IMG/VR virus record: IMGVR_UViG_3300025413_001239
Length of the DNA stretch: 64,000 nt
Origin: a virus
Lineage: Duplodnaviria > Caudoviricetes
Strand: one strand, 5' to 3'
The stretch's first letter is position 1, and each line of letters opens with the position of its first letter. Shown here in pieces: positions 1,744 to 31,784 of the stretch. The position numbers were made by a program, and so were the translations under genes. The notes beneath the pieces were generated by a model that ran no database searches, had not been told where the DNA came from, and worked only from the letters and a program-made list of their open reading frames with translations.

Positions 1744-2855
1744 TTAATTATTATACCAACTCCATTCATACCCACCAGCAGATTTTCTTTCTTTATTGCA
1801 TACTTTTGTTATATTTCCAATTTGAATTCCTAAATGTTTATAAATATAGTTATTGAATTCCACGTATTGATAATAATACCGTTTTTAGATTGAATAACTT
1901 TTTTACCTTTACTAGCTTTATATGTGGTATCTATTAGATTTTTTTTATTTTCAGTTGTTAATTTAACCTTTAAATTATATTTATCAAGTAATATATTCAA
2001 TAATTTTTCATCATAATTTTCAAGATAAAACCAAAATTTATTAAGACAAACACTATTTTTAATTATTGATTGACTTATAGCGGAAGTTGAAACACCATAA
2101 AATTTATTAGCCTCTGACAATGAGTGCCACTCTTTAGTAGTTTTTTTATTTATATCATATTCAATAATTTTTTTATTATTTGTTTTACCATTTATGCTAC
2201 GAATATTATAAGTTCTTTCATGATATTTAGAAATAAAATCTTGAAGATTGGATATGTTTTCAATATCATCCGAGTATCGCCAAATAAAATTATTTAAAGA
2301 AAATCTTTTTAATCTACAAACATCAGTTATTGAACCATAACCGAATTCTTTTTTCACCAAATCAATAGATTCCCATTCTTTAATAAACTCACCATTTAGT
2401 GAAAATTGTTTAACCTTTACTTTTTTAGTATCTAAAAAATCATCACTAAATTTATACCCAGATATACCATCACCACCATTTGTTAAATTAGTTAAAGGAC
2501 CTAAACCTAAATCATTTCTACCAATTAATCTAATTAATTCAACCTCTAAATTAAACGCATCATTTTCGAGCAAGTTTTTTTTAACTCTAATAATGATAGG
2601 TGATAAATTTTCAGATAGAATTTTTTTAATTTTATTGTTTTTATAACTAGATATAAAATTTAAATTATATTCGTTTAAATGACATTTATCTCTAAATCCA
2701 GAACCTTTACCAACATAAAAAGGTTCAAAATCAAATTCAAATTCACCATATTTATAATTTGATTTTTTTCTAGGGTCTAAGTAAACGTAAACATAAAATT
2801 TATTTTTCTTTTTGTTGTATTTCTTAGAATATTCAACTTGTTTTTTATTACTCAT
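1744..2855 (-). mobile_element. Free-standing GIY-YIG (LEM-3-like) homing endonuclease with NUMOD1 repeats; 1-nt frameshift near the 3' end
   Basis: FYVYVYLDPR...FYVGKG and KVKQFSLNGEFIKEWESI. The last NUMOD1 continues in another frame (HLGIQIGNITKVCNKERKSAGGYEW) to TAA at 1744-1746. Confidence 0.8.
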
Positions 2856-2901: not shown

Positions 2902-3483
2902 CTATGACAAAAATAATTCTTTTTCTTCTTTGATAGCCATTATATTAGCAAATTTAAGTAATTCACCTAATACAGAATTATGATATTTTGATTGCTTATC
3001 AGAGTCATCTTTATCATGATTAATAATTGCCGCATATTCCACGTCAGTTAGAATAACACCATTTGAAAGTGCATAAAAAGCTGAACGTTCACCAACACGC
3101 ATAGAAACTTCTTCATTTCTAAATTCGTACATCTTGCCTTGGTTTTTAATATGCCATTCAGATGTGCAAGGTGTATAAAGATGCGCTTTACCAATTTGGT
3201 ACAAAAAACAAACCTTTATAATTTCTTCCTTAGGTAATCTAAGCTTCTCTGGTAACGCAGCATTAAAAGAAACAGCAAATTTTGTTGTTCTTAATAAATG
3301 GTCAATTAAACCACCCTCAAACGCATTGTTAAGGTCTTTGTTTGTTGACGCTGGTGCGGCCATGAAATCTTGACCTAAAAAAGCTGTAAGACTTTCAGTC
3401 ATGAAAGGTTCAGCTGTTTCAAAATACTTTTTAGTATTCTTAATAATTTTGTCTTTATCTAACATATTTTTTAATTTACGCAA
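2902..3483 (-). CDS. HD-fold protein with degenerate HD dyad (probable true start at MLDKDK)
   Basis: GGLIDH...FLYQIGK...INHD layout of HD-domain proteins. Confidence 0.6.
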   Translation of the reverse strand: MRKLKNMLDKDKIIKNTKKYFETAEPFMTESLTAFLGQDFMAAPASTNKDLNNAFEGGLIDHLLRTTKFAVSFNAALPEKLRLPKEEIIKVCFLYQIGKAHLYTPCTSEWHIKNQGKMYEFRNEEVSMRVGERSAFYALSNGVILTDVEYAAIINHDKDDSDKQSKYHNSVLGELLKFANIMAIKEEKELFLS

Positions 3484-3512
3484 ATATACAAAAAATATTT
3501 TAATAAAGCAAA
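3481..3512 (-). promoter_or_regulatory. Bacteroidota-type sigma70 promoter
   Basis: Minus strand TTTG-N20-TATATTTG, matching the -33/-7 consensus. Confidence 0.7.
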
Positions 3513-3755
3513 TTAACGATTCATAATTTTTATTGCTGATACACCATTTTCATAATCACCTAAATCATCCCATAACCCATTACTACTGTTAGGTATAAAT
3601 TTACCATATTTTTTGTCAATAATATTTAATATCCCATTAAAGGTATCTTCAGTTATTAACTTCTCAACATTTTCTTTGGTTACAGGAATAGGTTCATTTT
3701 GATTTTCAATATTATCCATGATTATCATCAATTGAATTAATTCTTTCTTCTTCAC
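3513..3755 (-). CDS. Hypothetical protein
   Basis: 80-aa ORF in the operon; start uncertain. Confidence 0.45.
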   Translation of the reverse strand: MKKKELIQLMIIMDNIENQNEPIPVTKENVEKLITEDTFNGILNIIDKKYGKFIPNSSNGLWDDLGDYENGVSAIKIMNR

Positions 3756-4407
3756 TTTTCATTCTACCAAAAAAACTTTCATGTGTTTCATTTTTATCAA
3801 CCTTAATCATAACTTCTTTTGCTTTTTCTAATTTAGGTTTTAACCTATTAACATCAAGTGTTGATGGTTTTTTTATTTGTAAAGCATCTAATTTAACTTT
3901 TTGTCTTTTTAATGAATTATAAGCAAAATCGTTCTCTTGTTTTATTAAAATATTTAATTCTGGACCTTTAATATCCTCTAACGATTCATTATGAATATCA
4001 ACAATTTCTGGCACATAAAATATTGGTGAAGAGTTACCGTCATAACCATGTAATGTTGCTTCAACGTGTGGTTTGCGCAACTCATCCATGTAGTTAAGTA
4101 TTTCCTTAACCCTTTCAGTTTTTATATTCCATTCATTTTTTAATATTAATTCATCTGTATTGGGCTTAAAAATTTTTACTTGTTCAAAATAAGATGGTAA
4201 AGGCTTATTAATCATAACCTTTTTTATAGAATACTGTAAATTCGACTTACGAATTCTTGTAAGTCTTTCATATTCTTTCATAGTACCTCTTTTACTCTTG
4301 ATACTAAGATAAACTATCAAGACTTTTAATTTTAAATCTTGAATAAATTCGTTAAATTGTCTTTTAATTTTTTGAAATTTCTTTTTCATTTTATTTCTTT
4401 TTTTCAT
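3712..4407 (-). CDS. Hypothetical protein
   Basis: 231-aa ORF overlapping its neighbours. Confidence 0.6.
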   Translation of the reverse strand: MKKRNKMKKKFQKIKRQFNEFIQDLKLKVLIVYLSIKSKRGTMKEYERLTRIRKSNLQYSIKKVMINKPLPSYFEQVKIFKPNTDELILKNEWNIKTERVKEILNYMDELRKPHVEATLHGYDGNSSPIFYVPEIVDIHNESLEDIKGPELNILIKQENDFAYNSLKRQKVKLDALQIKKPSTLDVNRLKPKLEKAKEVMIKVDKNETHESFFGRMKSEEERINSIDDNHG

Positions 4408-6709
4408 TTACCAGTTTAAGGTATAGGTTTTTTCTATCTTCAGTTACCTTATCCATAGAATACGTATCCTTAACTGTGTTATATAAGTTTTCACTAAGTT
4501 GTGTTACTAATTCTGGTTGTTGAATTAATTTCTTAATTGCTTTAACCCAATCTTTGGTTTGATGTTTACTTGGTTTAATCAAAATACCATTCGCATTAGT
4601 ATCCCAATTACCACCAAATTGTATAGCGTTAGTCACATCAATTTGATATGGACCAAAATCCTGAGCTATAATAGCCTTTTTATGGAATCCAGCTTCGATG
4701 ACTTTTAATTGACTCTTAACCTCATTAAAAATATTATCTTCAATTGGTGCCAATGATACATCAAATAAATTATAATTTGATGCGTATGTACTAATTGGCT
4801 TAGTCCAAACTCTTCTATAAGGTTCGTTAGCTACATTAGGATATTCTTCGTTCTTAAACTTCAATAAGAAATCCTTATACTCTGGACTTACAGTTGAATA
4901 GTTATCGGTAAATATTTTTTCATACTGATACCAAACGCTTTCAGTTGGCTTGATGGGTCTTTGAGTTTGTTGTTTAGTTTGCTCATCAATAATTGTCATA
5001 GTACCTCTAAGGTCATATCCACATAGTACAAATTGTACTTTATCTATAAGACCTTCACGATTAATGGTTCCAACCACATCGTTAATAAGTTCTAAGTCTT
5101 TAAGGTGACTATTGCCAATCCACATTGCTTTGCCGTTTCTTCTGACATAGATAATATGATTTTTAACTTCAACACAATAAACATTACCTTTATAATATCT
5201 ATTATATTGATTTTCTGTTTTAATTAGAGGGGTATTTTTATTATGCTTACTAGTACTATGATGTTTGGTAAAATTAACCACCAATGAATCATATTGTGAC
5301 TTTATTCCTCTTCCTTTAATTTCACTAGTTCGTTTACCTCGATTTGTTATTGTCGCTGAAATACCTATTTTTAAAGCAATTTCTTGTAAATTATTTGCTA
5401 ACGAAGGTGAGCAAGTAAATGCTCTGGTTCTTGTATATTTATTATTTTCAATATGGCCGTCACCTTTAATAAACCAATCTAAAAATATTGTTAATTGTCT
5501 TGGTGATAAATTTAATATTTCTTCAGGTACAAATTTATCATATGCATTACCAAAATTTGATAAGTATTCCCATAACATTTTATCAAAAACCCTAACTTGT
5601 TTTTTGTCTTTAGTATACGTTGGTTTGAAACCCATTTTAATTAATAATTCATACATATATGATAAATACCCATTATCTTTTGTTTGTGCTATACCTACTT
5701 GATGTAACCCATTTGTTTTAGTAGTCCACCCTTCAGCCATCCAAAAACCAAAAAATTGTAACCAATTATCCATATCGATATTTTTATCATAACCATATTT
5801 TTCGGATAATCCATTATAACGTTTTTTTGATATTAATTTATCAATATAGTTTTCGTTTTCTTCAAATTCAGCGTATTCATTTAGCATTGGTAAAACAAAA
5901 TATTTTTCTTTTTTACCAACCCATACTGCATCTTTTTTAACATGGAAATTTTTACCATGTATTTTTTCAGATTGGATTAATTCTAAATCAAGTTTTTTAT
6001 GTGTTAATGATTTGGCCACAGAGGCATACATATTGTGGTTTGGTGTAACTTCGTATTCAACTAAACCATTTTTACAACAATTTAATTCACCTTCAAATGG
6101 TTCACATATGTAACCTGTTGGTTTGTGGTACTCTAATTCATTTGTATTTGGATTTAATGTTGCAACCATTTCGGTTTGATTTAAAGCGTCAAATCTTTTC
6201 CAACCTTCATCAGTCAGAATTTCGGTATCTGGTGTCATACAACTACCACCTAACCAACCAATTCTAAGTCTCTCAGATGGTTCTACATTTGGTGTAAATT
6301 GTTTTTCGGTTGGGTCTACAGCATTTGGAAGTACGAATACGTTTTTATTAAATTTTTTAATTTCATCAGCAAATATGGGTGTTGTTGTTGTAACATTTCT
6401 TGAAATCTTAATGTTATTAAGAATTAACTTATCAAGACCATGATTTTTTATAAGTAAAAAAGCTGGGTGATGTGGTCCTGGGGACCAATAGTCATCTAAG
6501 TCCATTATTGTAACAATACCTAAATTGTCAAGTCTTTCAAGGAGTGCTGGTAATGCGCTATATTCACCAAGGGTTCTATGATAATGTATAATATCATATT
6601 GTTTAAGCCATTCATCATTATCTAATTGTGGTTCATAATCAATATCAATTGAGAACTCATCTGGGTAATTTTGTTCTAGGGCAATATGTGGCTTAGAACT
6701 TCTAAAGTA
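4391..6709 (-). CDS. GT-B (family 4-like) glycosyltransferase, main body; homologous coding extends 68 codons upstream of the tracked ATG with no ATG/GTG/TTG
   Basis: YFRSSKPH...YDIIHYHR...IMDLDDYW, LPNAVD, IGWLGGS|SHLKDL, DVSLAPI, KSQLKVIEAG. Frame is open 6733-4391 with first ATG at 6505. Confidence 0.85.
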   Translation of the reverse strand, partial: YFRSSKPHIALEQNYPDEFSIDIDYEPQLDNDEWLKQYDIIHYHRTLGEYSALPALLERLDNLGIVTIMDLDDYWSPGPHHPAFLLIKNHGLDKLILNNIKISRNVTTTTPIFADEIKKFNKNVFVLPNAVDPTEKQFTPNVEPSERLRIGWLGGSCMTPDTEILTDEGWKRFDALNQTEMVATLNPNTNELEYHKPTGYICEPFEGELNCCKNGLVEYEVTPNHNMYASVAKSLTHKKLDLELIQSEKIHGKNFHVKKDAVWVGKKEKYFVLPMLNEYAEFEENENYIDKLISKKRYNGLSEKYGYDKNIDMDNWLQFFGFWMAEGWTTKTNGLHQVGIAQTKDNGYLSYMYELLIKMGFKPTYTKDKKQVRVFDKMLWEYLSNFGNAYDKFVPEEILNLSPRQLTIFLDWFIKGDGHIENNKYTRTRAFTCSPSLANNLQEIALKIGISATITNRGKRTSEIKGRGIKSQYDSLVVNFTKHHSTSKHNKNTPLIKTENQYNRYYKGNVYCVEVKNHIIYVRRNGKAMWIGNSHLKDLELINDVVGTINREGLIDKVQFVLCGYDLRGTMTIIDEQTKQQTQRPIKPTESVWYQYEKIFTDNYSTVSPEYKDFLLKFKNEEYPNVANEPYRRVWTKPISTYASNYNLFDVSLAPIEDNIFNEVKSQLKVIEAGFHKKAIIAQDFGPYQIDVTNAIQFGGNWDTNANGILIKPSKHQTKDWVKAIKKLIQQPELVTQLSENLYNTVKDTYSMDKVTEDRKNLYLKLVNEKKK
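5111..6241 (-). mobile_element. 377-aa intein with LAGLIDADG domain in the glycosyltransferase
   Basis: Starts CMTPDTEILT, ends NGKAMWIGN|S; FFGFWMAEG and FLDWFIKGDG helices. Splicing restores GWLGGSSHLKDL. Confidence 0.92.
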
Positions 6710-6714
6710 GCTTG

Positions 6715-6801
6715 TCAGCTGACCCCAGTTCTGTCACTAGGTACTACTAATACCTTTACTTTGCGACTAACTGGGGTCAGATTAATAATGTTTGTTGTCA
6801 T
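6715..6801 (-). CDS. 28-codon leader ORF carrying a second copy of the glycosyltransferase N-terminus
   Basis: ATG at 6801 overlaps the endonuclease end: MTTNIINLTPVSRKVKVLVVPSDRTGVS then TGA. Confidence 0.65.
   Translation of the reverse strand: MTTNIINLTPVSRKVKVLVVPSDRTGVS
6719..6780. repeat. Perfect 12-bp inverted repeat enclosing a longer hairpin
   Basis: CTGACCCCAGTT (6719-6730) and AACTGGGGTCAG (6769-6780), with inner GTCGC/GTGAC and GGTATT/AGTACC pairings on the minus-strand transcript. Confidence 0.9.
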
Positions 6802-7671
6802 TTTGTGAAATTAATTCTCTTATTATATTTTTATTTTTTTTGTAATCCGATTCCCAGATTACAATACAATTATAATTATATTTTTTAGCTAAGTCAAGCT
6901 TATTCTTATCATATTCCCATATTTCTTTAGCTGTTTTACTCTTTTTTTTATTATAATACATTGAATCATATTTTTTAGGGTTACAATGCCAGTAATCACC
7001 ATTATACTCAATAAGTAAATTTAGCTCAGGAATATAAATATCAAAAATTTTTGATTCAATAATAAAATTAGGTTCGACTTTTAAATTTATGCTCTCAAGA
7101 TATTTAATAATTTCAAACTCTGGTTTTGAGCGATTAAAAGATTTTAACTCTCCGTTAGCAATTCTATTTTTCATAAGAATACTTAACTTGGTTCTAGTCT
7201 CTTCCATTTTACCACTTTTCCAACGTTCTTTAGCCATAATACTAAACATGTCTTTGTATTCTTGTTTAGACATATGGTCACTAGTTTTAACACCAATTTT
7301 TTTATCTGAAATTGTTTTTTTTGTAGTATTTGAATGAGTTTTTTTAAAAAACGGATTCCCCCCCCAACTTGTTTTTTTAAAGAACATTTTTTACATTCAT
7401 GTTTATTTTTTAAATTTCTATTTAGTAAAGATTTATTGTTTACTGAAAATTTTATTTTTTTATTACATGTAATACAAGTATAATGCCCACACCACATATT
7501 ACCCTCTTGCCAAAAATTTTTATAGAAAGACTCGCCAAGCAATCTATTTCTAGTTAAATTTTTGTCTTTTAATATTTTTAAAACTTGATTTTTTGTAATG
7601 TTAGGTATTAATTTACATATTTTAGTTGACCCAATACCGCTTAAATATAATTCAATTATTTTTTCTTCCAT
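6782..7671 (-). mobile_element. Homing endonuclease (zinc ribbon, NUMOD3, Vsr/DUF559/EDxHD-like nuclease) split by a frameshift in a G8 run
   Basis: ORFs 7183-7671 and 6782-7387 join at a C8 run (7358-7365) to give QVGGGNPFFKKTHS; C-terminal FDIYIPELNLLIEYNGDYWH...IVIWESD. Confidence 0.8.
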
Positions 7672-7674
7672 ATA

Positions 7675-7770
7675 TTATAAATATACAGAAAATAAAAATA
7701 AGTCTAAAAAGCTAACCCCAGTTCTGTCTGATGCTACTACTAAAACTTTAATTTTTTTGTTTTTTGTCAT
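7675..7770 (-). CDS. Orphan first copy of the glycosyltransferase N-terminus (31-codon ORF)
   Basis: MTKNKKIKVLVVASDRTGVS then FLDLFLFSVYL stop. The first 20 aa join YFRS at 6709 in frame if 6710-7710 is removed. Confidence 0.7.
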   Translation of the reverse strand: MTKNKKIKVLVVASDRTGVSFLDLFLFSVYL

Positions 7771-7829
7771 TATTTTTATTTTTAAAACGTTATTTTGATT
7801 AATATACTAAACATAAAATATTAGTCAAT

Positions 7830-7858
7830 AAAAAAGGCCCTATAAGGGCCTTTTTTTT
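7830..7858. terminator. Intrinsic terminator
   Basis: AAAAAAGGCCCT-ATA-AGGGCCTTTTTTTT. Confidence 0.85.
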
Positions 7859-7876
7859 ATTATAAATAATTTTAAT

Positions 7877-8524
7877 TTAAATAGATTTTCTCTTTGGTGT
7901 TACTTTTGGTGTAATTTTACCTTCTTTAATAAGGGTTGTTATTGTAGCCTTTACGGTTTCTTGTGTAACCATTTTATTATAGCTTTTAGTAAAGTACTCA
8001 AGAAGTTTTTTCTCAACCATACTATTAACCATTTCATTTAATTGAGATTTGCTAACTGTAATTGTGTCACCTTGATTAACTGGTCTTTTGATATTTTCAC
8101 TTAATTGTTGTTTAGAACCCTTTAATGGTATACCAGCAACTTTAGCAATATCTTCAGCTGTAAATTTGGATGGTGGTGCTGCAAATTTTGGAACTCTTTT
8201 TTCCATCATTACTTTTTTAATACTATCTGGTAATTTAGAATTCATAACTTGTTCATCACTATAATTATAAACGTTTGATGGTCCAGAAGGTACGTAATTG
8301 TCAAAACTCATTTCTCGTTCATCACTTTCGCTATACATTTCAGCTGGTCTTGATGATTGCCTTTTTGGTGGTGTTTCAACATAATCAAAATTATCTTCGT
8401 AACTTTCTTGAATTTGACCGCTTTGTTTTTTAGGGTTTTCTTTTTCTACTTTATTCATTACAGCAGCAGCTTTACCTAAAATACTACCTAACCTACTAAG
8501 GTCTACTGGTGGTGGTGTTGTCAT
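7877..8524 (-). CDS. Hypothetical protein
   Basis: 215-aa ORF. Confidence 0.7.
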   Translation of the reverse strand: MTTPPPVDLSRLGSILGKAAAVMNKVEKENPKKQSGQIQESYEDNFDYVETPPKRQSSRPAEMYSESDEREMSFDNYVPSGPSNVYNYSDEQVMNSKLPDSIKKVMMEKRVPKFAAPPSKFTAEDIAKVAGIPLKGSKQQLSENIKRPVNQGDTITVSKSQLNEMVNSMVEKKLLEYFTKSYNKMVTQETVKATITTLIKEGKITPKVTPKRKSI

Positions 8525-9554
8525 TTGTGTTTGTTTTTAAGTTGTTATTATTTTTTTGTTTCAACTTTTGTTGTAAACGTTTTTTTAATTCTTTTTCTTT
8601 TTCAATCTTAGCACGAAGTTTTTCTTGTCTAGCTTGTTGTTCTTTTTCTTTTTTTGCTAAATAAGCTTGTTTATCTTCTAGTTCTTTACGTTCAGCATCA
8701 AGTTTATCTTGATATTCTTGTTCCTCACCACTATTAAACTCTTCTTCGTTTTCTTCGTCTTCATCATTCTCATCTTCATCATTTGCAATATAAGATGAGT
8801 TTTTATTTAATTTAAAACCTTGTTTTTTTAACCAATTTGTTGCAGCATCTAAATCACCGTCAGAATTATTTAACGCTTGTCTAGCATCAAAATTACTAAC
8901 TCCAGTTGCTTGTGCTAATTTGTATATAGCATCAGCTGAAACTTCGTTATCTTTAGTTTCTTCTGGATTTTGTTTAATGTAAGAACTAGTATTTGGTTTA
9001 TTAACTTTATATTTTTCTCTATTAGCTTGTATTTTTTGATATTGTTTTTTAAATTCTTCAGGTGATATGTTTGAAACATCTCTTGAAGTAAAATCAGTAC
9101 TTTTTCTTTGATACTTACTTGTTTTATACTTATCATCGAATGTAGCAATGTCACGTACTGTTTTCATAGTTCTATCACCATTTGGATTAAACTTATCCAT
9201 TGGTCTATAAAACTTCATTTTGGTTGGTTGCCAACTACGGATTCTATCCAACCTAAAAATTTTCCAAGCACTACGACCTGGTGTTGTTTTAGAACCACCA
9301 CCAACTTGATAAGCTCTTATGGCTTTATTGTCAGCTATGGTATCTGAAAAGTTATATACTTGAATATACCTTTTACTAGGTGGTGCATCTGGATAATCTT
9401 CATAAGTTATATTTACAAAGTACTTTCCATTAATAGCATCAATAACAGCCTCATCTGAAACATTTTCAGTTAAAAGACTAGCGGTCTCTTCTAATATAAT
9501 ATTTTCAAATAATTTGTAAAGTTTCATTAATAATAAACTATTACTTGACCACAA
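8496..9554 (-). CDS. WYL-like domain plus EF-Ts N-terminal (UBA-like) domain, acidic tract and coiled coil
   Basis: WKIFRLDRIRSW; ADAIYKLAQATGVSNFDARQALNNSDGDLDAATNWLKKQG. Confidence 0.6.
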   Translation of the reverse strand: MWSSNSLLLMKLYKLFENIILEETASLLTENVSDEAVIDAINGKYFVNITYEDYPDAPPSKRYIQVYNFSDTIADNKAIRAYQVGGGSKTTPGRSAWKIFRLDRIRSWQPTKMKFYRPMDKFNPNGDRTMKTVRDIATFDDKYKTSKYQRKSTDFTSRDVSNISPEEFKKQYQKIQANREKYKVNKPNTSSYIKQNPEETKDNEVSADAIYKLAQATGVSNFDARQALNNSDGDLDAATNWLKKQGFKLNKNSSYIANDEDENDEDEENEEEFNSGEEQEYQDKLDAERKELEDKQAYLAKKEKEQQARQEKLRAKIEKEKELKKRLQQKLKQKNNNNLKTNTNDNTTTSRP

Positions 9555-9898
9555 TTTTTTGTCATATCTGGTTGCTTATAGCAATGATTTGGGTCAAAGC
9601 CCCATGTACCTAAATTTAGGGCAAATGCTGGCTTACGACCAGAACCTTGAGCTACATTTGGATTACCGTTAATATCCAAATCAGAACCACCATTATAATT
9701 TATAATAGCTGCTTGTAAATCATCACCAGTACCCTTTCCGTAATTTGGTGTTGTTTGGTCAGCCAATGCTCTAGTGTGGGTTACTGTATATTCATTTGAT
9801 GTAATGCAGTTATATGTATTTTGTGGAATTAAGCAATTTCTTGCTGAAATTGCTGCAATTTCTAGTGGTGATTGACCACCGTTTACTGGTGCTGGCAT
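9527..9898 (-). CDS. Hypothetical protein
   Basis: 123-aa ORF, G/N-rich, possibly structural. Confidence 0.65.
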   Translation of the reverse strand: MPAPVNGGQSPLEIAAISARNCLIPQNTYNCITSNEYTVTHTRALADQTTPNYGKGTGDDLQAAIINYNGGSDLDINGNPNVAQGSGRKPAFALNLGTWGFDPNHCYKQPDMTKNCGQVIVYY

Positions 9899-9901
9899 AA
9901 T

Positions 9902-10357
9902 TTAAAGTTTTTCTTTTTTATTGTTATTTAAGTATTCTATAAGATATAGAATTTTTTTTAAATCTTCTTGAAGAGATTCGTTATAAACCTCTTTATTTGT
10001 CATTATTTTTCGAAGGATACTACCTTTATTTAATTTAGGTAAACCACCGACTTTTGTTGGGTTTTTAGATGAATCCTTATCGTGAGTTTTAATAAATTGA
10101 TTTTCACGACCAGTATCCATTCCAATCTTCTTTATACCATAAATACTATCTCTATCTTTTTTTAACGTTTCTTCAATAAATTTTAACGCTGCATCACCAC
10201 CTTTTCTATTAAACTCATCCATATTACCATCTTTTTTGGCTTGTGTAAGTCTGGTTTTAGTTGTTTTAAGGTTTTCGTAAGTAATAGCGGTACCTAAAAA
10301 ACTTCTAAGGTTTTCTGGTACTGAATACGTCTTACCTTGCATTTGTGAATTAGGCAT
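9902..10357 (-). CDS. Hypothetical protein
   Basis: 151-aa ORF. Confidence 0.65.
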   Translation of the reverse strand: MPNSQMQGKTYSVPENLRSFLGTAITYENLKTTKTRLTQAKKDGNMDEFNRKGGDAALKFIEETLKKDRDSIYGIKKIGMDTGRENQFIKTHDKDSSKNPTKVGGLPKLNKGSILRKIMTNKEVYNESLQEDLKKILYLIEYLNNNKKEKL

Positions 10358-10820
10358 CTTTATTTAATTTACTTAATACAGCTTTTTTTATTCTATCTAA
10401 TTGTTTATCAGTTAAATCAACATCATTTATTATATCAAGAACCTTTTCAGTCTTTTTATCATATTCTTTATCAAATACTTCACTATTCTTAGACTTCTTA
10501 ACTAAGTCTTCTTCAAGTTCTTTTTTGGTTATAACTTTCTTTTTAGTTTCGTTAACTGGGAGACCACGACCAGATTGGCTACGGTAACTGTAAACTGCGA
10601 ACCAAGGTATATTTTGCCTATATCTAGAAGCCCTATCTGTGGTTGTTGAGATGCCTTTTTCATAATCAGAATCGTCATTCCATGGTTTTTGAACAGGTCC
10701 AGTTTCAATTTCACTATCATTGGTAGCATTTCTATCACCACTGATAATACCACCATCGGCACCAACAAGTTCATCCAATTCAAATTTCTCCTTAATATTC
10801 TTTACTTTAATTATTGGCAT
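10350..10820 (-). CDS. Hypothetical protein
   Basis: 156-aa ORF preceded by the ATATTTAT motif. Confidence 0.65.
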   Translation of the reverse strand: MPIIKVKNIKEKFELDELVGADGGIISGDRNATNDSEIETGPVQKPWNDDSDYEKGISTTTDRASRYRQNIPWFAVYSYRSQSGRGLPVNETKKKVITKKELEEDLVKKSKNSEVFDKEYDKKTEKVLDIINDVDLTDKQLDRIKKAVLSKLNKDA

Positions 10821-10836
10821 AAATAATTCTTTTATA

Positions 10837-10866
10837 ATAAATATATTGAAAACGCTGAATATTTAT
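10837..10866. promoter_or_regulatory. Divergent pair of ATATTTAT putative late-promoter motifs
   Basis: Minus copy at 10837-10844 before 10820; plus copy at 10859-10866 before 10884. Confidence 0.55.
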
Positions 10867-10883
10867 TAAATAAATAAAGAATA

Positions 10884-11561
10884 ATGGCATTTATTACAAA
10901 ATTAGACTATTCATCAAATAGACAAATATCACAATACCCAGAAACAATAACTTATTTATCTGGTGGAACAGTATTTGGATTACCATTTAATCAATTGGTT
11001 ACAGGACCGAATTTAAATACAAGTGCAATAACACAAACTTACGGTGGTGCTATTAGTACTTTTTCTGGAAATACTGGTACAACTGTTTATACTTGGTATA
11101 ATTCTGGTATGCAATTGGCTTATTCTAGACTTTCGGCAATAACACCTTCAAATAGTGCAATAACACAAAATACTGGTGTGGTATTTACTGGTACGAATAC
11201 CACTATTATTGATGGGAATACAGTTAATTTATCTTACAGTGGTGTTGGTTTTGATATTACACCAATTGCTATGATAAGTCTTGGTGGTGGTAATTTTAGT
11301 GGTACATCATATAGTCAAACAGTTAATTTTTATAGTGCTGGTACTTTAGATTATACTGGGCGTACTATATGGGTTGATGTTAGTGGTATTACAAGAACAA
11401 ATACTCTTTTAGCGGATAATATCCAATTAACAGCTTTAAATACCGCACCATCATCATCTGGTGATACTGGTACAACTGGTCAAATAAAAATAAGTAATGG
11501 ATTTATATATGTTTGTGTTGCAACAAACACATGGAAAAGAGCAACTCTATCAGGGTTTTAA
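10884..11561 (+). CDS. Putative virion/fibre-associated protein
   Basis: T/S/G-rich; C-terminal PSSSGDTGTTGQI...FIYVCVATNTWKR is a fibre-type motif. Confidence 0.6.
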   Translation: MAFITKLDYSSNRQISQYPETITYLSGGTVFGLPFNQLVTGPNLNTSAITQTYGGAISTFSGNTGTTVYTWYNSGMQLAYSRLSAITPSNSAITQNTGVVFTGTNTTIIDGNTVNLSYSGVGFDITPIAMISLGGGNFSGTSYSQTVNFYSAGTLDYTGRTIWVDVSGITRTNTLLADNIQLTALNTAPSSSGDTGTTGQIKISNGFIYVCVATNTWKRATLSGF

Positions 11562-11570
11562 TATAAAATT

Positions 11571-14500
11571 ATGGGTTATAATATCAATGAAAATAAAACA
11601 AATATTGTACCATTTCAAAGTGGTAAGGGTATTCCAACACATATATCACCATTAGGTTCAGTCTATATTGATAATACAACTGGTGTACAATATATAAATA
11701 AGGATGGTTTAGCTGGTTGGGCGTTTTTTTATGATTCGACAATACCGATAAGTGGTGGTACTGGTGGCGGTGGTGCTTATGTTCCATTATCTGGTGGTAC
11801 CATGTCTGGTACACTTTATGCCCCAACCTTTTCTGGTGGTACATTTTATGGTGATGGTAGTCATTTAACTGGTGTTGGTGGTACATTTAATGGTGGAACG
11901 GTTACTGGTTCAACAATATTTACTAGTGGACTTACAGCAAATACAATATCCGCTACAACATATCAGAATCTACCAGCAACACCATACTTGAATTTATCTG
12001 GTGGTACTGTAACTGGTAATACCGTATTTACTAGTGGACTTACAGCAAATACAATATCTGCAACCACTTATTTAAATTTACCAGCAACACCATACTTGAA
12101 TTTATCTGGTGGTACTGTAAGTGGTAATACTGTATTTTTAAGTGGACTTACAGCTAATACAATATCAGCTACAACATATCAGAATCTACCAGCAACACCA
12201 TACTTGAATTTATCTGGTGGAACTGTAAGTGGTAATACTGTATTTTTAAGTGGACTTACAGCAAACACAATATCCGCTACAACATATCAGAATCTACCAG
12301 CAACACCATACTTGAATTTATCTGGTGGAACTGTAAGTGGTAATACTGTATTTTTAAGTGGACTTACAGCAAACACAATATCAGCAAATACTATAACCGC
12401 AAATGCGTTATCACCTGTTGGTTATATTGATTTTAATACAGGTACAACAGTAACACCTAAAGGTGGAAGATTATTTTATAATAGTCAATTTGATGGTCCA
12501 TCATATTATCCAACAAATGATACAAATGTTTTAATTAATCTTGGACAACAATTATACATGTCAGTGATTAATGTCTCTGGTTCTTTAATACCAAAGGGTA
12601 GTGCAGTTTCAGTTTTAGGTAATACAAATGGTGTACCTAATATCACTTTAGCGGTAAATGTTCATACTGGAAATAGTTATTTAGTTGGTCTTGCCGCTGA
12701 TGATATACCAAATGGTAATTTTGGTTTTGTATTAAATGAAGGTATATTAAGTGGTTTAACTCTTAATAATTTTAAGATTGGTGATACCTTGTATTTATCA
12801 CCATTTTCAGCTGGTACATATACAAATTCAACATTATCATTTCCATATACTGCTAGGACAAACCAAATTGGTTACGTACTTAAAACAGGTTCAACGACTG
12901 GTGAAATATATGTTAAAATATATAATGAAGATACAAATTCAACACTTACAACACTTGAAAGAAATATTGTTGATGGTAACTCTATGGCTACTGGTATCTA
13001 TCAATTCACTGGTATTACACAGACATCTAGTACTACATTTAATATAGCACCAGCTTTAGGCTGGGTGGTTAATAATACTTATGAAAAAGCAACGTTACCC
13101 GATGTTACAGAAATTAGTTATTCTGGTGGTACTAATTTAACAACGCCATATTTAACCATTGCCGATAACACATATGTGTTAATAACTACAGCATCAACCA
13201 TTACATTTCAACCAACATATCCAACACCACAACAAAGAAGACAAAATTTGTTTTTAGGTAAAATTATTCACACTAATAGGTCTTCAATTATATCTATAAA
13301 TCAAACTGTTGATTTTGACGTATCACCAATGGCAGCATTACGTGATTTATGGACACCTTTGGTATTAATTAATCAAGGTATTGTACCTTCAGCATATAGT
13401 GCTGGTACGTTAAGTATTCAAACAAGCTATGGTACATTATGGGGTAATGGTATCGGTTGGACTACAAATCAATTAAATCCAAATAGTGTTACTTTATCTA
13501 CCACAACACCGACTACATTTCAATATAGAACACAATTAGGTGCGGTAACAGGTAACACTGCACCATATACAGGTAATACAATTTATATCGACCCATTACA
13601 TTATGATTATAATGGTGTTGTAACAAATATACCATCGTCTCATGGTAACACAATTTATGCAACTAACCAAAGAATCTATTTATTCCCAACTGGACTTGTA
13701 AGAATTCAATATGGGCAACAATATTATACAACATTTGCTAGTGCAATTGCTGGTTATAGTAATGAATCATTCCAGGTTTATTCTAATAATGCGACAAATG
13801 GTATTTTAATTGGAATATTAACAGTTGTTAGGGAAACAACTGATTTAACAAATACTTCATATGCTTTATTTTCTTATGTTTCTAAGTTTGGTGAATTATT
13901 AGGTGGAACAGCTGGTATTTCAACAACAACACTTCAACAAGCATATAATAATTCATCAAGTCCTGAAATAGTTATTAACTCAACACTTGATGGTTTAACA
14001 ATACAAAATGGAACAGGTAATCCCGATAATACCACACACTTATTGGAAGGAATGAATGCTTCTGGCCAAGTTACATCATTTATTAAGGCTGATGGTGGTT
14101 TCAGTGGTTCTAGTGTATCCGCAACAACATACTATGGCTTACCTTTAGATATACGTACAACTGGTGCGACTTACTTAAATAATACATTTACGTTTACAAA
14201 TAATACTGGTGGAACTTATAGCGTTTTATTTAATACATTAACTGGTTTAACTGTAAACGGTATTTTATCAGCAACAACAATATCTGGTGGTACATTTTAT
14301 GGTAATGGTAGTGGGTTAACATTAACTAATTCTCAAATTATTAGTGGTTTAACTTATACACCATATAATGGTGCTACAAATCCGAATGGTTATATTAGTG
14401 GTATAACTAGTGTAATAACTGGTACTGGTGTTAATAATACAGTTGCGTTTTTTAATAATACAAATTCATTAAGTGGGACAACTGGTTTAACTTATAATGG

Positions 14501-25617: not shown

Positions 25618-28600
25618 ATGAGTAAAGTAGATGCTACGATTATTGAATCGTTTCTTAATGGTAACAACCCTAAAAAGTATGTTGTTGGTATTGAAGCCAA
25701 TTACGGTGAGCCATTCGTTAATTTAATTGTTAACGACCCAGATACTGGAAAAAAAATAGAACGCTATCCTTTTAAGCCATTTTTATGGTTTAAAGAAGAT
25801 GTTGCCAAAATACTCTATGGTGGTAGTAAAGTAAAAGCCATGCAAAAAGCTCAAGATTATGGTATTAAAAGCCAAAGATTAATGGTGGGTGATGCAAATG
25901 GGAATATCCCTAAGAGATTAGAAAATGGGTATAGATATCTAGCAACTTGTAATAAATCCTATAACGATTTAATTCGTTACTTTAAAGATGGTGGTGTCGA
26001 CATCTTTGACAAAGAATTCTCTAAATTATTTTTCTCTTTTACACCAGTTGAACAATTTATGATTCAAAGTGGTATCCGTATGTTTAAGGGTATGGATGAT
26101 TATAATGATTTACATAGGTTCCAATTTGACTTGGAGACTGAAGGGTTATCTGGTAATGTTGATGGTATATTTCAAATTGGTATGCGAGACAATAGAGGTT
26201 TTGAGCAAGTGCTTGAAACTAAAGGTAATACCTTACAAGAAAAACGTGAATGTGAACGTGAAAATATTAAAGAATTTTTTAGGATAATTGATAGGTTAAA
26301 ACCAGATATTATAACTGGTTACAACTCAGAATCATTTGACTGGACTTTTATTGTTGATAGATGCCAAAGGCTTTCTTTAGATGTATCTAAAATTTCAATA
26401 TGTTTAGATGCAAATTCTAGTTTAAAGAGAAAACCAGCAATGCTTAAATTGGGTAATGAGATGGAATCATATAACCAAACATATATGTATGGTTATAATA
26501 TTATTGATATTGCACATTCTGTTAGGCGAGCACAAGCGATTAATTCTGATATTAAGGGTTGGGGTTTAAAGTACATTACACAATATTCTGAAATTAATAA
26601 AAAGAATCGTGTTTACATCCCAGGTGATAAAATCCACACAATTTGGTCCGATACAGTAAATGAGTATGCTTTTAATGATAATAATGGTGATTGGTATAAG
26701 ATATCCGATAGGATGGAACTAAAAGAAAACTATGTTATAGTTAAGGGTGATTATCTTATTCAAAGATACTTATTAGATGACTTATGGGAAACTGAACAAA
26801 TTGATACAATATTTAATCAAGCAGCTTTTTTGATTGCTAAATTATTACCAACAACATATAGTCGTAGTTCTACGATGGGTACTGCTAGTCAGTGGAAGCT
26901 TATCATGGCCGCTTGGTCTTATGAGAATGGCTTAGCTATTCCAGAAACAGAACCTAAGCGTGAATTTACTGGTGGTTTATCAAGACTTTTAGAATTAGGT
27001 TATGCTAGAAATGTTGTTAAACTTGACTATGCTGCGTTGTATCCTAAAACTGAGTTAACACATTTAATTTTTCCAGATTTGGATATTAGTGGTGTGATGG
27101 AAGGCTTGTTGACTTATGTTGTTGATACTCGTGATACATTTAAATTCTTAACTGGTAAGGAAAAGAAAGTAGCTAAAAAATTAGCTGATGAAATTGAATC
27201 AAATAAAGATAATTATACACAAGAAAAACTAGATGAATTAAAAGTAGAACAAAAAAATCATAAGGCTTTAGCTAGTCTTTATGATAAAAAACAGCTACCA
27301 CTTAAAATACTTGCAAACTCTTGGTTTGGTGCATATGGTGCTCCTTATATTTTTAATTGGGGTGCCTCTGATTGTGCTGAAGAAACAACTTGTCGTGGCC
27401 GTCAGTACTTAAGACTTATGGTTAGACACTTTAGTGAAAAGTATGGGTTTAAAGCACTTGTTGGTGATTCTGTAACATACGATACACCTGTTTATATTAG
27501 ATATAAATCAAATAAAAATTATATTGATGTATTACCTATATGTGATTTATTTAATGAAAATTCAGAATTTTTAGATATTGATAAATTTAGGGATTTTGAA
27601 GAAAAACCATTTGAAGTTTTGACACGTAATGGTTGGAAAGATATAAAATACGTATACAGACATGAAACAAATAAAAAAATTCATAGGATAACAACTAAAG
27701 ATAGACTAATAAATGTTACTGAAGACCATTCGTTATTTAAAAATGGTAAAGAGGTTAAACCATCTGAACTTAAAAGATTCGATGAAATTGACACATATGA
27801 AATTCCGAGAAATAATGTTGATACAACGTTTAATATTAGTAAAGCATATTTGTGTGGTTTTTTCTTAGGGGATGGTTCTGCCAATTGTTCAACTAGAAAA
27901 CAAAAATATGTTTCTAAAAAAACTGGTGAAGTACATATAAATAAAGGTAAAAGAAGTGATTGGAAAATATCTAATTCGAGAATTGGGTTATTAGAAAAAT
28001 TACAGACTATACTTAAAGATGAATATTCCATTGATGCCGTGATTAAGAATCATGTTAAATCAAGCGGTGTTTATAATTTGGTTGTACATAATGTTGATTT
28101 TGCTAATAATTTTTGCGAAAACTTTTATACATCATATAGAGAAAAGAAAATACCATATATGATATTAAATGCAACTGAAGATATTAAAAAAGCATTTATT
28201 GAGGGTGTTTTTGCTTCGGATGGTTATGGTGATACAATAGAGGATTGCTCTGATATTGGTATGAAGTCACAAGTAGCTATGGCTGGTATTAGTTTGTTAC
28301 TTAAAGAATTAAATATTGAATATAAGATTAAAACAAGGTCTGATAAGCAAAATTTTATTTCATTTTCACTAAAAAACAATAATAGAAATAATTCTCCATT
28401 TACAGAATTAACAAAAAAGAAAACTAATGAGGTTTGGAAAAACGAAATTATTTTAAATAAAGATAAAAATAAATTTGTTTATGATATATCAACAGAAGAT
28501 GGTACTTTTATTTGTGGTATAAACGGTATAATAGCACATAATACTGATGGTTTCAACTTTTCTTTTCCTGATAATATCGATAATATTAAGTATTTAGCTA

Positions 28601-30294
28601 AGGGTTCACATTGGAAAACAACTGAAGATGCTGGTAAGGAATTATCTGGCTTAGAAGCTGTTTTGGCTGAGTTTAACGAAACTTATATGATTGGTAGGAT
28701 GGGTTTGGATATTGATGATATTTGTACTTCAACAATCAATTTCTCACGTAAAAACTACGCTAACGATATTAATGGTAAAATTAAATTTGTGGGTAACTCC
28801 ATCAAATCTAAAAAGATGCCAGTTTATATTGAAGATTTCTTAAGTAAGGCTATTAGGTTATTATTAGATGGTAAGGGTTCAGAATTTATAGACTTTTATT
28901 ATGAATACGTTGATTTGATTTATAATGGAAATATTCCAGTTGTAAAAATAGCATCTAAATCTAAAGTTAAATCAAGTATTTCAGATTATAAGAAAAAAGC
29001 ATTTAAGAAAAATAAGGCTGGTAATCCAATGCCTAAACAAGCACATATGGAGTTGGCTATTAGGGCCGATTTAGACGTTAATTTAGGTGATACCCTTTAC
29101 TATGTTAACACTGGTAATTCAAAGTCTCAAGGTGACCTTAAAAGCGTTAAAAAAGATAATGGTGCAACTGAGTTGCAATTGAATTGTAAACTGATTGACC
29201 CGATGATTGTTGAAAGCAATTTAGAGGTTCTTAAGGAGATTGAAACCATTAAAAAGATTATAGCTACGGAAACAGATGATGATAAGATAGAAAAGCTTCA
29301 AAATCAAATTGTAGAAATGGAATCAACTCTTATTAGAGATGATTATAATGTTGCTAAGTATCTTGAAGCTTTTAATAAAAAGGTAAAGCCGCTTTTGGTT
29401 TGTTTTCATATCGATATTAGGGGTAAAATTCTTTTAAATATCAAAAAAGATAAAAAAACTAAACTTGAGAAGTTGGAAGAAAAAAATATATTCACTAAGT
29501 TGCAATGTGAACTTGTATCTGGAATGCCAAATAAACCAGAAGACCAAGATTCCTATGAAGAATTGATGACAATGGAAGATAAGGAAATTAAATTCTGGAT
29601 TAAGGTGAATAAGATTCCAAATAATATGACCGAAGACGAATTTGATATTATACAAAGAAATTATATTGAAAGAAAACGTATTGAAAGAGAAGAAGGTATT
29701 GCTCACGAAAAACAACTGTTACAAGATATATTTAAACATCTTGAATATCATGAATTATTAGATATTAAGAATGGTGAAAATATACCAGTTGAGATACTCA
29801 CAAATAGAGACTTAAACTTTGAAAATGGTGATATAATATCTAAAAAATGGGATGAAGTTGTTGGTAATTTTAGGGATATCTTTAAATACGAAAAGGAAAT
29901 TAAAGAAAGACACGAATGGTATAAATCAACAAATAATACTAAGGATGATAGATACCAAGATTGGATAAATTATCGTAACGAATTAGAGGTTACTTCAATT
30001 AAAGTTCATTTTGAGGAAGAGCTTGAAGCATTTGATATTAGCGAACCAATTAGAAGGGTAGCTGATAAAATATCAAAAAATGAAATAATTATACCAGTAG
30101 TTGTTGAAACTAAGAAACAAGTTAAAAAAGAAGATGATGACGATGATGAAGAAATTGAAATAGAACCAATTGATGATTTTAGTCCAGAACTCCAACAGTT
30201 TGAATTTAATGTTGAGGTACCAGAAAGTATATCTGAACCACCTATTCAAAAAGTTGAAGAGGTTGAGGAAGAGGATGAATGGAATATGTTTTAA
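25618..30294 (+). CDS. polB: Family B DNA polymerase with intein
   Basis: Exonuclease motifs FDLETEG and GYNSESFD; motif A DYAALYP; KILANSWFG; VGD|TDG; RKNYA. Confidence 0.95.
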   Translation: MSKVDATIIESFLNGNNPKKYVVGIEANYGEPFVNLIVNDPDTGKKIERYPFKPFLWFKEDVAKILYGGSKVKAMQKAQDYGIKSQRLMVGDANGNIPKRLENGYRYLATCNKSYNDLIRYFKDGGVDIFDKEFSKLFFSFTPVEQFMIQSGIRMFKGMDDYNDLHRFQFDLETEGLSGNVDGIFQIGMRDNRGFEQVLETKGNTLQEKRECERENIKEFFRIIDRLKPDIITGYNSESFDWTFIVDRCQRLSLDVSKISICLDANSSLKRKPAMLKLGNEMESYNQTYMYGYNIIDIAHSVRRAQAINSDIKGWGLKYITQYSEINKKNRVYIPGDKIHTIWSDTVNEYAFNDNNGDWYKISDRMELKENYVIVKGDYLIQRYLLDDLWETEQIDTIFNQAAFLIAKLLPTTYSRSSTMGTASQWKLIMAAWSYENGLAIPETEPKREFTGGLSRLLELGYARNVVKLDYAALYPKTELTHLIFPDLDISGVMEGLLTYVVDTRDTFKFLTGKEKKVAKKLADEIESNKDNYTQEKLDELKVEQKNHKALASLYDKKQLPLKILANSWFGAYGAPYIFNWGASDCAEETTCRGRQYLRLMVRHFSEKYGFKALVGDSVTYDTPVYIRYKSNKNYIDVLPICDLFNENSEFLDIDKFRDFEEKPFEVLTRNGWKDIKYVYRHETNKKIHRITTKDRLINVTEDHSLFKNGKEVKPSELKRFDEIDTYEIPRNNVDTTFNISKAYLCGFFLGDGSANCSTRKQKYVSKKTGEVHINKGKRSDWKISNSRIGLLEKLQTILKDEYSIDAVIKNHVKSSGVYNLVVHNVDFANNFCENFYTSYREKKIPYMILNATEDIKKAFIEGVFASDGYGDTIEDCSDIGMKSQVAMAGISLLLKELNIEYKIKTRSDKQNFISFSLKNNNRNNSPFTELTKKKTNEVWKNEIILNKDKNKFVYDISTEDGTFICGINGIIAHNTDGFNFSFPDNIDNIKYLAKGSHWKTTEDAGKELSGLEAVLAEFNETYMIGRMGLDIDDICTSTINFSRKNYANDINGKIKFVGNSIKSKKMPVYIEDFLSKAIRLLLDGKGSEFIDFYYEYVDLIYNGNIPVVKIASKSKVKSSISDYKKKAFKKNKAGNPMPKQAHMELAIRADLDVNLGDTLYYVNTGNSKSQGDLKSVKKDNGATELQLNCKLIDPMIVESNLEVLKEIETIKKIIATETDDDKIEKLQNQIVEMESTLIRDDYNVAKYLEAFNKKVKPLLVCFHIDIRGKILLNIKKDKKTKLEKLEEKNIFTKLQCELVSGMPNKPEDQDSYEELMTMEDKEIKFWIKVNKIPNNMTEDEFDIIQRNYIERKRIEREEGIAHEKQLLQDIFKHLEYHELLDIKNGENIPVEILTNRDLNFENGDIISKKWDEVVGNFRDIFKYEKEIKERHEWYKSTNNTKDDRYQDWINYRNELEVTSIKVHFEEELEAFDISEPIRRVADKISKNEIIIPVVVETKKQVKKEDDDDDEEIEIEPIDDFSPELQQFEFNVEVPESISEPPIQKVEEVEEEDEWNMF
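27469..28542 (+). mobile_element. 358-aa intein with LAGLIDADG domain in polB motif C
   Basis: VGD|SVTYDTPVY...VTEDHS...GFFLGDG...GIIAHN|TDG. Confidence 0.95.
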
Positions 30295-31529: not shown

Positions 31530-31784
31530 TTAACCTAAAAATTGTTTAGTTAATTCAAACAGTTCATTGATACTTCTAAAAGAAACATTTGGTATAAGTA
31601 CTTGATTTTTCACACGTACCATTGGTACATCATCACATTTGGTGATTTCGTAAAGTTTATTAAACTCTTCTTCATTTTCTGGTAGATTAACATCTACATC
31701 AATAAATTCAATACCTTCATTTGTAAGCATTTCTTTTAATTCCTTACAATATGGGCAATTTTCCACACTATATACTCTCGTCAT
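31530..31784 (-). CDS. Glutaredoxin (NrdH/Grx-like)
   Basis: YSVENCPYC and cis-Pro motif DVPMV. Confidence 0.9.
   Translation of the reverse strand: MTRVYSVENCPYCKELKEMLTNEGIEFIDVDVNLPENEEEFNKLYEITKCDDVPMVRVKNQVLIPNVSFRSINELFELTKQFLG

Follow-up and report, generated by a model that had tools for sequence, protein, structure and literature searches.

The 64,000-nucleotide (nt) stretch of viral DNA analyzed here (IMG/VR record IMGVR_UViG_3300025413_001239, Caudoviricetes; the whole stretch is referred to below as the window) carries on its minus strand a glycosyltransferase gene whose reading frame is broken by a stop after 28 codons and then resumes, in a different frame, without a usable start codon. 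In our interpretation, a mobile cassette with a homing endonuclease has taken the place of the 5′ end of the glycosyltransferase gene, bringing with it a built-in short translational bypass, or stop-hop, a reading to which we assign a probability of roughly 0.8. A first-pass annotation of the sequence had proposed a programmed hop from the serine codon AGC over UGA-CA to a second AGC, giving the junction GVS-YFRS, and the comparisons below strongly support such a hop, as homologs without the interruption read across the junction free of gaps and 78 distinct interrupted alleles share its layout.

The interrupted junction and its relatives

The ATG at 6801-6799 (minus strand) opens a 28-codon open reading frame (ORF1, 6715-6801; MTTNIINLTPVSRKVKVLVVPSDRTGVS) which joins a cassette-borne N-terminal extension, MTTNIINLTPVSR, to a recoded glycosyltransferase N-terminus, KVKVLVVPSDRTGVS. 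Its last codon, AGC (Ser28, 6718-6720), is the proposed take-off codon, which would be decoded and then left by the peptidyl-tRNA. It is followed by a 5-nt coding gap (6713-6717), comprised of the stop TGA (6717-6715) and CA (6714-6713), that we propose is untranslated, and then by the second AGC (6710-6712), the proposed landing codon, with which the peptidyl-tRNA would re-pair without a second decoding before translation resumed at UAC (6709-6707). The glycosyltransferase frame, -1/+2 relative to ORF1, is open from the landing AGC for 773 codons (S-YFRSSKPH onward) down to position 4391. The portion beyond the landing codon (ORF2, 4391-6709, beginning YFRSSKPH) encodes the rest of a putative GT-B (GT4-like) glycosyltransferase precursor; its first in-frame ATG is codon 69 past the landing, and neither GTG nor TTG occurs in its first 200 codons. 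Joined by the hop, the product would have 800 residues, or 423 after removal of a 377-residue intein. Re-verification of the first-pass annotation reproduced every sequence statement on the locus, namely the frame opened by ATG 6801, the coordinates of AGC-UGA-CA-AGC, the resumption at YFRSSKPH, the 68 codons without a start and both product lengths.

Searching IMG/VR with the N-terminal portion of the enzyme recovered 80 loci, a protein-based sample unbiased toward interruption. Of these, 68 are uninterrupted, starting with MKKIKVLVV and reading ...KVLVVPSDRTGV(S/G)(Y/F/K)(F/Y)RS..., and 12 (nine alleles) are interrupted at exactly the same codon, with the stop always directly after it. The 51 distinct uninterrupted, or plain, alleles read ...PSDRTGV(S/G)(Y/F/K)(F/Y)RS without a gap across GVS|YFRS. 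Likewise, a 400-residue homolog from a metagenomic megaphage reads MIKVLVLTSDVDGIGYYRNFMPH and aligns ungapped with KVKVLVVPSDRTGVS|YFRSSKPH. Because the uninterrupted homologs align gap-free to the hop product, the GVS-YFRS junction restores the ancestral length, and relative to these homologs the break in the window is an excess of exactly 8 nt. The junction itself is kept by relatives of the window: alleles L195 and L204 (77% identical to the window) have AGC TGACA AGC, and L148 (84% identical over 6239-7755) has AGC TGACA AGT. The TGACA gap is common to these three alleles and L174.

With pattern scans and JGI/ENA metagenomes added to IMG/VR, the number of distinct interrupted alleles rose to 78, representing 40 junction types. 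All have a take-off codon AGY or GGY, an immediate stop, 0-9 further nt, a landing codon and then (Y/F/K)(F/Y)RS, and a hop from take-off to landing codon accommodates every one of them. Landing codon and gap length were unconstrained in all of the pattern scans. The implied hops are mostly short (+5 in four alleles, +6 in 32, +7 in 13, +8 in 18 and +9 in three), the longer ones being +10 (one allele), +11 (five), +14 (one) and +15 (one); frame classes 0, 1 and 2 account for 36, 14 and 28 alleles, respectively. The landing codon is the same as the take-off codon in its first two bases in 68 of the 78, and serine codons of the TCN type are absent from the landing sites, although 18 of 28 plain alleles with serine at this position use TCN. 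As a landing codon would never be decoded in a hop, its conserved match to the take-off codon points to hopping. The stops are TGA in 42 alleles, TAA in 35 and TAG in one, and all 10 alleles found by protein similarity (the window included) have TGA or TAA. Alleles with a +5 hop have a landing codon whose first base is also the last base of the stop, for instance AGT TG[A GC], AGT TA[A GT] and AGC TG[A GC], and the sole TAG allele is the glycine case in which a G is needed at that position, GGT TA[G GT]. The gap sequences have no common motif other than the stop. The longest, TAACAAAAAAA and TAACAAAAAACA in L176 and L209 (hops of +14 and +15), are A-rich extensions of a TAAC-type gap and may mark the upper limit of what the hairpin described below can drive.

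The spread of hop lengths bears on the alternative that has to be taken most seriously, conventional recoding that differs from allele to allele: a -1 (or +2) frameshift within 6733-6715 in the window, readthrough in the in-frame alleles and a +1 shift in others. Both frames of the window are open over 6733-6715, making a -1 shift formally possible, and the in-frame +6 alleles could be read through. However, that interval contains no X XXY YYZ heptamer, the structured RNA is upstream and not downstream, and in many alleles the downstream frame is open for just 0-2 codons before the landing site, so that any shift would have to occur at the take-off codon. As their hops occupy all three frame classes, the alleles cannot all be served by one frameshift or by readthrough; close relatives would require three different mechanisms, the products would be two to three residues longer than every uninterrupted homolog (three in the case of a -1 frameshift in the window) in the loop between strand β1 and helix α1, and the matching landing codon would be left unexplained. 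The -1 frameshift that the first-pass annotation had listed as an alternative thus has no slippery heptamer and does not generalize to the other alleles, and we regard conventional recoding as improbable.

The hairpin upstream of the take-off codon

The interrupted alleles carry an N-terminal extension, M x6-8 (T/A/S)P(V/L)(G/N/S)R(K/E)..., that is absent from the plain alleles. Its codons are the reverse complement of those encoding (P)SDRTGV, and consequently the RNA from about -62 to the take-off codon folds as a three-stem hairpin. In the window this 5′ hairpin (6719-6780, minus strand), which we term the zipper, consists of a basal 12-bp stem (6780-6769 paired with 6730-6719), a middle stem (6767-6763 with 6737-6733) and an apical stem (6755-6749 with 6745-6739); its 3′ arm encodes VLVVPSDRTGV and terminates inside the take-off codon. 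Folding of the 102 nt between 6801 and 6700 gives -32.7 kcal/mol, with z = -5.0 relative to shuffled sequences. Two RNA structures had been described in the first-pass annotation and they fared differently. The perfect 12-bp stem is real and includes the first two bases of the take-off codon; the AGCU-GACA-AGCU mini-hairpin over take-off, stop and landing codons can form in the window but is not conserved, as the gaps differ among relatives. The RNA element that matters appears to be the large 5′ hairpin, with the 12-bp stem at its foot, and not a mini-hairpin over the gap.

The hairpin, present in every interrupted allele and in no plain one, sets the two kinds of allele apart. The mean minimum free energy is -29.8 kcal/mol (range -24 to -38, n = 29) for interrupted alleles versus -7.6 kcal/mol (n = 51) for plain alleles, with no overlap (p = 1e-13), and in 78 of 78 interrupted alleles the 3′ end of the stem falls between positions -2 and +1 counted from the first take-off base. 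When the 5′ half of one allele was combined with the 3′ half of another, ~9 kcal/mol was lost. A MAFFT alignment of all of the hairpins was inconsistent with the structure, making its consensus fold meaningless, and it was replaced by the per-allele folds, the chimera energies and an ungapped subfamily alignment of 37 alleles on which covariation was measured. In that alignment 88.5% of cells are paired, compared to 31-48% when the partner column is slid, and changes on both sides of a pair occur at nine pairs in 57 cells versus 14.6 ± 4.7 cells in shuffled data (none of 500 shuffles reached 57). For instance, the pair at the wobble position of the valine codon is seen as C-G, U-A, A-U and G-C, and the nucleotide facing the first take-off position is U or C according to whether the codon is AGY or GGY. 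These compensatory changes fall at synonymous sites of a conserved enzyme motif, indicating that the 5′ arm follows the 3′ arm. The glycine codon of TGV is GGG in 78 of 78 interrupted alleles versus eight of 51 plain alleles, GGG having been a search requirement for the pattern-derived alleles and its frequency being unbiased only in the 10 protein-similarity alleles, all of which have it; this codon gives the stem an invariant C4:G4 core. ORF1 is 26-28 residues long in 75 of the 78 alleles and is conserved in sequence too, which the enzyme N-terminus and hairpin complementarity also explain, besides a nascent-peptide signal. Extension of the stem into the gap through the 5′ flank was weak and limited to few alleles, and was not used.

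These features suggest how the hop might proceed. The ribosome would translate the 28 codons of ORF1 and arrive with peptidyl-tRNA-Ser on AGC and UGA in the A site, where termination would be slow. That UGA is the rarest true stop in the window (three of 35 genes) yet the commonest at the hop sites (42 of 78) fits with slow termination. At this point the basal 12 bp would be melted, as the 3′ arm would sit in the mRNA channel, and the apical hairpin and the free 5′ arm would be outside the exit. Once codon-anticodon pairing broke, the stem would re-zip (by up to 12 bp), pulling the mRNA 5′-ward by a few bases, and the retained peptidyl-tRNA would re-pair with the next cognate AGC, 8 nt on. Decoding would resume at UAC to give ...SDRTGVS-YFRS..., equal in length to the uninterrupted enzymes. 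A stem that ends at the P-site codon could pull over about the length of mRNA between the P site and the exit, or roughly a dozen bases, a limit that agrees with the observed hops of +5 to +15, mostly +6 to +8.

Several points weigh against the hop as so described. In 10 of the 78 alleles (among them L108, L131, L132, L137, L159, L172, and L152) the landing codon differs from the take-off codon at the first position, nine being AGY to GGC and one GGC to AGC, and 15 alleles land on GGA or AGA, a third-position mismatch. For the nine AGY to GGC landings a G·U pair with the tRNA-Ser anticodon is possible. The pattern scans required RGY followed by TRA or TAG, and the type of stop and of take-off codon is unbiased only in the 10 protein-similarity alleles. 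In addition, the allele counts overstate the number of independent events, because the alleles are related to one another. The hairpin could also serve in mRNA processing or stability, or have a DNA-level role in homing, and its G4 run could instead act through pairing with rRNA. The last of these is unlikely, because Shine-Dalgarno (SD)-like motifs precede just one of the 35 large ORFs of the window.

The downstream frame and the cassette

ORF2 is maintained in the carriers. It is intact over its first 150 codons in 29 of 29 interrupted alleles examined and at full length in 10 of 10 interrupted loci examined. Within clades composed only of interrupted alleles the ratio of nonsynonymous to synonymous substitution (dN/dS) is 0.04-0.17 over 150 codons, with dS saturated (>1), and it is 0.02-0.07 over the first 25-50 codons after the landing site in those of the clades that align gap-free. 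Two pairs, L102/L108 and L037/L104, had higher values over codons 1-50 in an ungapped comparison (0.46 and 0.37, respectively), likely because of indels; ungapped values for codons 51-100 were unreliable for the same reason and the aligned 150-codon values were used. We conclude that ORF2 is under strong purifying selection in the carriers.

This selection also weighs on the possibility that the enzyme is made in two pieces or is N-terminally truncated, with ORF2 initiated separately by re-initiation or at an internal start. There is precedent for homing endonucleases splitting genes into functional halves, as in T4 gp39/gp60 and Aeh1 NrdA (bioRxiv 10.1101/2022.08.31.505936). However, the region around the landing site has no conserved start codon, the first ATG mostly being 53-69 codons farther on, and no allele has an ATG, GTG or TTG nearby, yet the codons directly after the landing site are among those with the low dN/dS values above; nor are AGY and GGN initiation codons. 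The predicted fold is a further consideration. The AlphaFold model of a plain homolog, L018, has a predicted local distance difference test score of 91.3, and its top Foldseek matches are GlgM, MshA, BshA, PglA, and PimA, with E-values down to 4e-13. The predicted fold, with two Rossmann-like domains, resembles those of GT4 retaining glycosyltransferases. Sequence profiles were less informative: Pfam Glyco_transf_4 scored 18 bits with the window protein, below the gathering cut-off of 28.5, and did not match L018 or L016, and Pfam and PDB sequence searches with the plain enzyme gave no match. In the L018 model the junction, S17|Y18, falls between β1 with its loop (residues 4-15) and helix α1 (16-31), so ORF1 would supply a core strand of the N-terminal Rossmann domain and both pieces would be needed in one fold. 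A 28-residue peptide that provides β1 in trans is unlikely, and we consider a two-piece or truncated enzyme very unlikely overall.

It might be argued instead that the interruption is a tolerated, inactivating footprint of the endonuclease cassette and the glycosyltransferase a pseudogene in carriers. The cassette is selfish, the endonuclease of the window is itself frameshifted (see below) and the enzyme may be dispensable. The intact ORF2 frames and the purifying selection at saturated dS contradict the inactivating insertion that the first-pass annotation had entertained, and the stop, the matching landing codon and the hairpin, with its compensatory changes, have all been kept, making it highly improbable that the gene is dead.

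We give equally little credence to the extra bases being removed, or being absent, at the nucleic acid level, either by hairpin-guided RNA editing or micro-splicing or as an artifact at the palindrome GTCAGCTGAC. The hairpin does end at the gap, and the take-off region is palindromic. Nevertheless, the junction is not an assembly artifact, an alternative listed in the first-pass annotation, because independent metagenome assemblies keep the same junction and dozens more carry varied gaps, and the absence of a shared gap motif beyond the stop speaks against editing or splicing. We know of no mechanism that excises 2-12 nt from a bacterial or phage mRNA. Splicing from an upstream copy, another early suggestion, has no support, the window containing no second copy of the N-terminus.

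The reading we prefer, a stop-hop carried by a mobile cassette, rests further on the sequences upstream of ORF1. The ORF1 ATG is 20 nt inside the 3′ end of a predicted homing-endonuclease gene (6782-7674, minus strand; stop at 6784-6782). Its PHROG matches (3339/559) are named "homing endonuclease/HNH endonuclease," and Pfam gave just weak matches to NUMOD3, HTH, and REase_MTES_1575. The predicted layout is an N-terminal helix-turn-helix (HTH), a NUMOD3 motif and a C-terminal PD-(D/E)XK/Vsr-like nuclease with the sequence EYNGDYWHCNP, a motif that looks Vsr/PD-(D/E)XK-like. In the window a frameshift in a G8 run (7365-7358) breaks the gene into two frames, over which it is 60% identical to an intact 305-residue ORF in L002; in L002, L148, L195 and most relatives it is a single ORF. 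The G8 frameshift represents either decay of a selfish gene or a homopolymer sequencing error.

The endonuclease and the interruption are linked. Among the 58 interrupted alleles with enough flanking sequence, 34 have an endonuclease homolog directly upstream, six have remnants of 38-119 residues and 18 have neither; an endonuclease or remnant is thus found upstream of 40 of 58 interrupted alleles, compared to none of 49 plain alleles. A tree built from the 150 N-terminal residues does not group the interrupted alleles together but scatters them; well-supported branches force at least nine changes and parsimony requires 16. The clearest comparison is between interrupted L016 and plain L018, which are ~96% identical on either flank and diverge from ~60 nt before the ATG to ~12 nt past the landing codon. 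This block of divergence, together with the TCG that L018 uses for the junction serine, indicates that the cassette brought its own recoded copy of the N-terminus. The order of the cassette is the endonuclease gene, a new start with the N-terminal extension, ~15 recoded first codons, a stop plus 0-9 bases after the Ser/Gly codon, and the repeat of that codon. The hallmarks of homing-cassette architecture were all found, namely an overlapping ORF, an extension, a recoded region, presence or absence among close relatives and decay of the endonuclease. The extra bases and the recoding would make a carrier immune to its own endonuclease, as in T4 mobA/gene 60, and the target of the endonuclease would be the plain allele, for example L018 around GGTGTTTCGTATTTTAGA.

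A second selfish element resides within the enzyme. The LAGLIDADG intein (377 residues, 5111-6241, minus strand; Pfam LAGLIDADG_3) begins with Cys and ends ...GN, followed by Ser. It is inserted after the conserved motif WLGGS, is absent from L148 and many other alleles, and is a separate element, independent of the hop cassette. The plain alleles L003 and L013 are ~1150 residues long, which suggests two inteins.

The window as a whole is ~30% G+C, and its genes for a tail sheath, a baseplate hub, a DNA polymerase and a helicase identify a large tailed phage. Searches of cultured-phage DNA with positions 6200-7900 and with a structural-protein gene gave no match, and the lineage is uncultured. 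The standard genetic code applies: the genes are long ORFs under translation table 11 and end in TAA (27), TAG (5), or TGA (3). Stop reassignment (e.g., UGA as Gly or Trp) was considered and rejected, as table 11 leaves the long ORFs unbroken, gaps with TAA are as frequent as those with TGA, and many of the gaps change the frame. The scarcity of SD motifs and the low G+C content suggest a host without SD-led initiation, such as a member of the Bacteroidota.

A search of 3000-12000 against Rfam identified no group I intron or other known RNA, with weak terminator-like matches near 7790-7870. Between the upstream gene and the endonuclease (7788-7873) there is a G+C-rich hairpin, GGCCC-UAUA-GGGCC, with A/U runs on both strands, that looks like a bidirectional intrinsic terminator and has weak Rfam matches to small RNAs and leaders. 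Two more free-standing endonuclease ORFs, a GIY-YIG (LEM-3-like) one at 1830-2855 (minus strand) and a 518-residue HNH/homing-endonuclease ORF at 53699-55255 (plus strand; PHROG 3339, E = 8e-99), mark the genome as rich in selfish elements. Several other ORFs are unusually long. Only the last ~280 residues of a 2126-residue ORF (47198-53578, plus strand) match tail sheath families, and it may be an outsized sheath or a fusion. A 1327-residue helicase ORF (31768-35751, minus strand), with matches to helicase, primase and terminase-like ATPase families, and a 1558-residue DNA polymerase ORF (25618-30294, plus strand) are both long enough to contain inteins or extra domains.

Comparison with known bypassing systems

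The closest counterpart of this cassette is T4 gene 60, whose 50-nt bypass is carried by the MobA homing-endonuclease element (Bonocora et al., 2011; Manning and Atkins, bioRxiv 10.1101/2022.08.31.505936). Both have matching take-off and landing codons with a stop directly after take-off. The MobA element also has, in common with the cassette, an endonuclease ORF, an N-terminal extension that overlaps its end, a divergent homologous region and the bypass, and in both systems the endonuclease is often decayed or lost and the bypass stays, with repeated insertions in related phages. The differences are nevertheless considerable. The gap is 2-12 nt (5 in the window), in contrast to the 47 nt between the GGA codons of gene 60, and there is consequently no room in it for a take-off stem-loop, a 3′ stem-loop or an internal SD element. 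A take-off stem-loop of the gene 60 type was not found among the interrupted alleles, the AGCU/AGCU mini-hairpin of the window being the unconserved structure described above. At ~60 nt and -24 to -38 kcal/mol, the 5′ hairpin of the cassette far exceeds that of gene 60 in size, and it reaches right up to the take-off codon, which is codon 26-28. The host gene encodes a GT4-like glycosyltransferase and not a topoisomerase, the cassette occupies the 5′ end of the gene without dividing it into two proteins, and the endonuclease is predicted to be of a NUMOD3/PD-(D/E)XK-like type. A "motor" role has been proposed for the 5′ stem-loop of gene 60 itself, which would zipper up where the mRNA leaves the ribosome (PMC5009743; bioRxiv 10.1101/2024.12.09.627546).

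In the step that we propose, the cassette resembles synthetic stop-hops in E. coli (Weiss et al., 1987; O'Connor et al., 1989), which include hops of +5 and +6 and show frame independence (PMC5009743). In these a peptidyl-tRNA detaches from a codon just ahead of a stop and pairs again at a matching codon a few bases downstream. The synthetic hops are of low efficiency and in artificial constructs, whereas the cassette is natural, conserved and selected, and has a hairpin that we propose to be stimulatory. A 2016 review by Atkins stated that a natural in-frame stop-hop was not known (PMC5009743). The byps of Magnusiomyces capitatus mitochondria, GC-rich inserts of 27-55 nt at many sites under relaxed decoding (Lang et al., 2014; PMC5009743), are likewise short mobile inserts skipped in translation, and their take-off and landing sites are sometimes only near-matched. 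They differ from the cassette in that the latter occupies one site, is read by bacterial-type translation and has an A-site stop and an upstream hairpin.

There are also parallels with prfB (RF2), in which a +1 programmed frameshift uses an overlapping codon and SD:anti-SD pairing, upstream refolding hairpins being known to favor forward shifts (PMC5009743). In both, the A site holds UGA (often UGA C), a G-rich element precedes the shift codon by a few bases, and an upstream element would drive the ribosome forward. In contrast to prfB, overlap between codons of the cassette is limited to the +5 alleles, the shifts range from +5 to +15, and SD motifs are almost unused in the genome. Taken together, the cassette as proposed functions like gene 60 bypassing and synthetic stop-hops and is not a member of the gene 60 cassette family, because it has no take-off stem-loop or internal SD, has a tiny gap, a different host gene and an apparently different endonuclease, and leaves the gene unsplit. 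Gene 60 has been regarded for decades as a near-unique case. Manning and Atkins (2022) call its cassette unique (bioRxiv 10.1101/2022.08.31.505936), and full-text literature searches returned no description of the glycosyltransferase cassette.

We think it probable, at somewhat lower confidence than the reading of the locus itself, that these alleles represent a natural, widespread and diversified family of short stop-hops (+5 to +15 nt) in which the pull comes from a large refolding hairpin abutting the take-off codon, a family simpler than and independent of T4 gene 60, with a different endonuclease and a different gene, and one in which the bypass persists and works after the endonuclease is lost. 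Dozens of natural variants in gap length, frame, stop and codon pair, all behind one hairpin, amount to a ready mutational series for leaving, sliding and landing, in which the alleles with mismatched codons are natural tests of landing tolerance. The same series could test whether mRNA zippering at the exit channel acts as a motor. If the reading is correct, homing endonucleases can protect their carriers by means of very small untranslated inserts, and gene callers mis-annotate genes such as this one as truncated or as pseudogenes.

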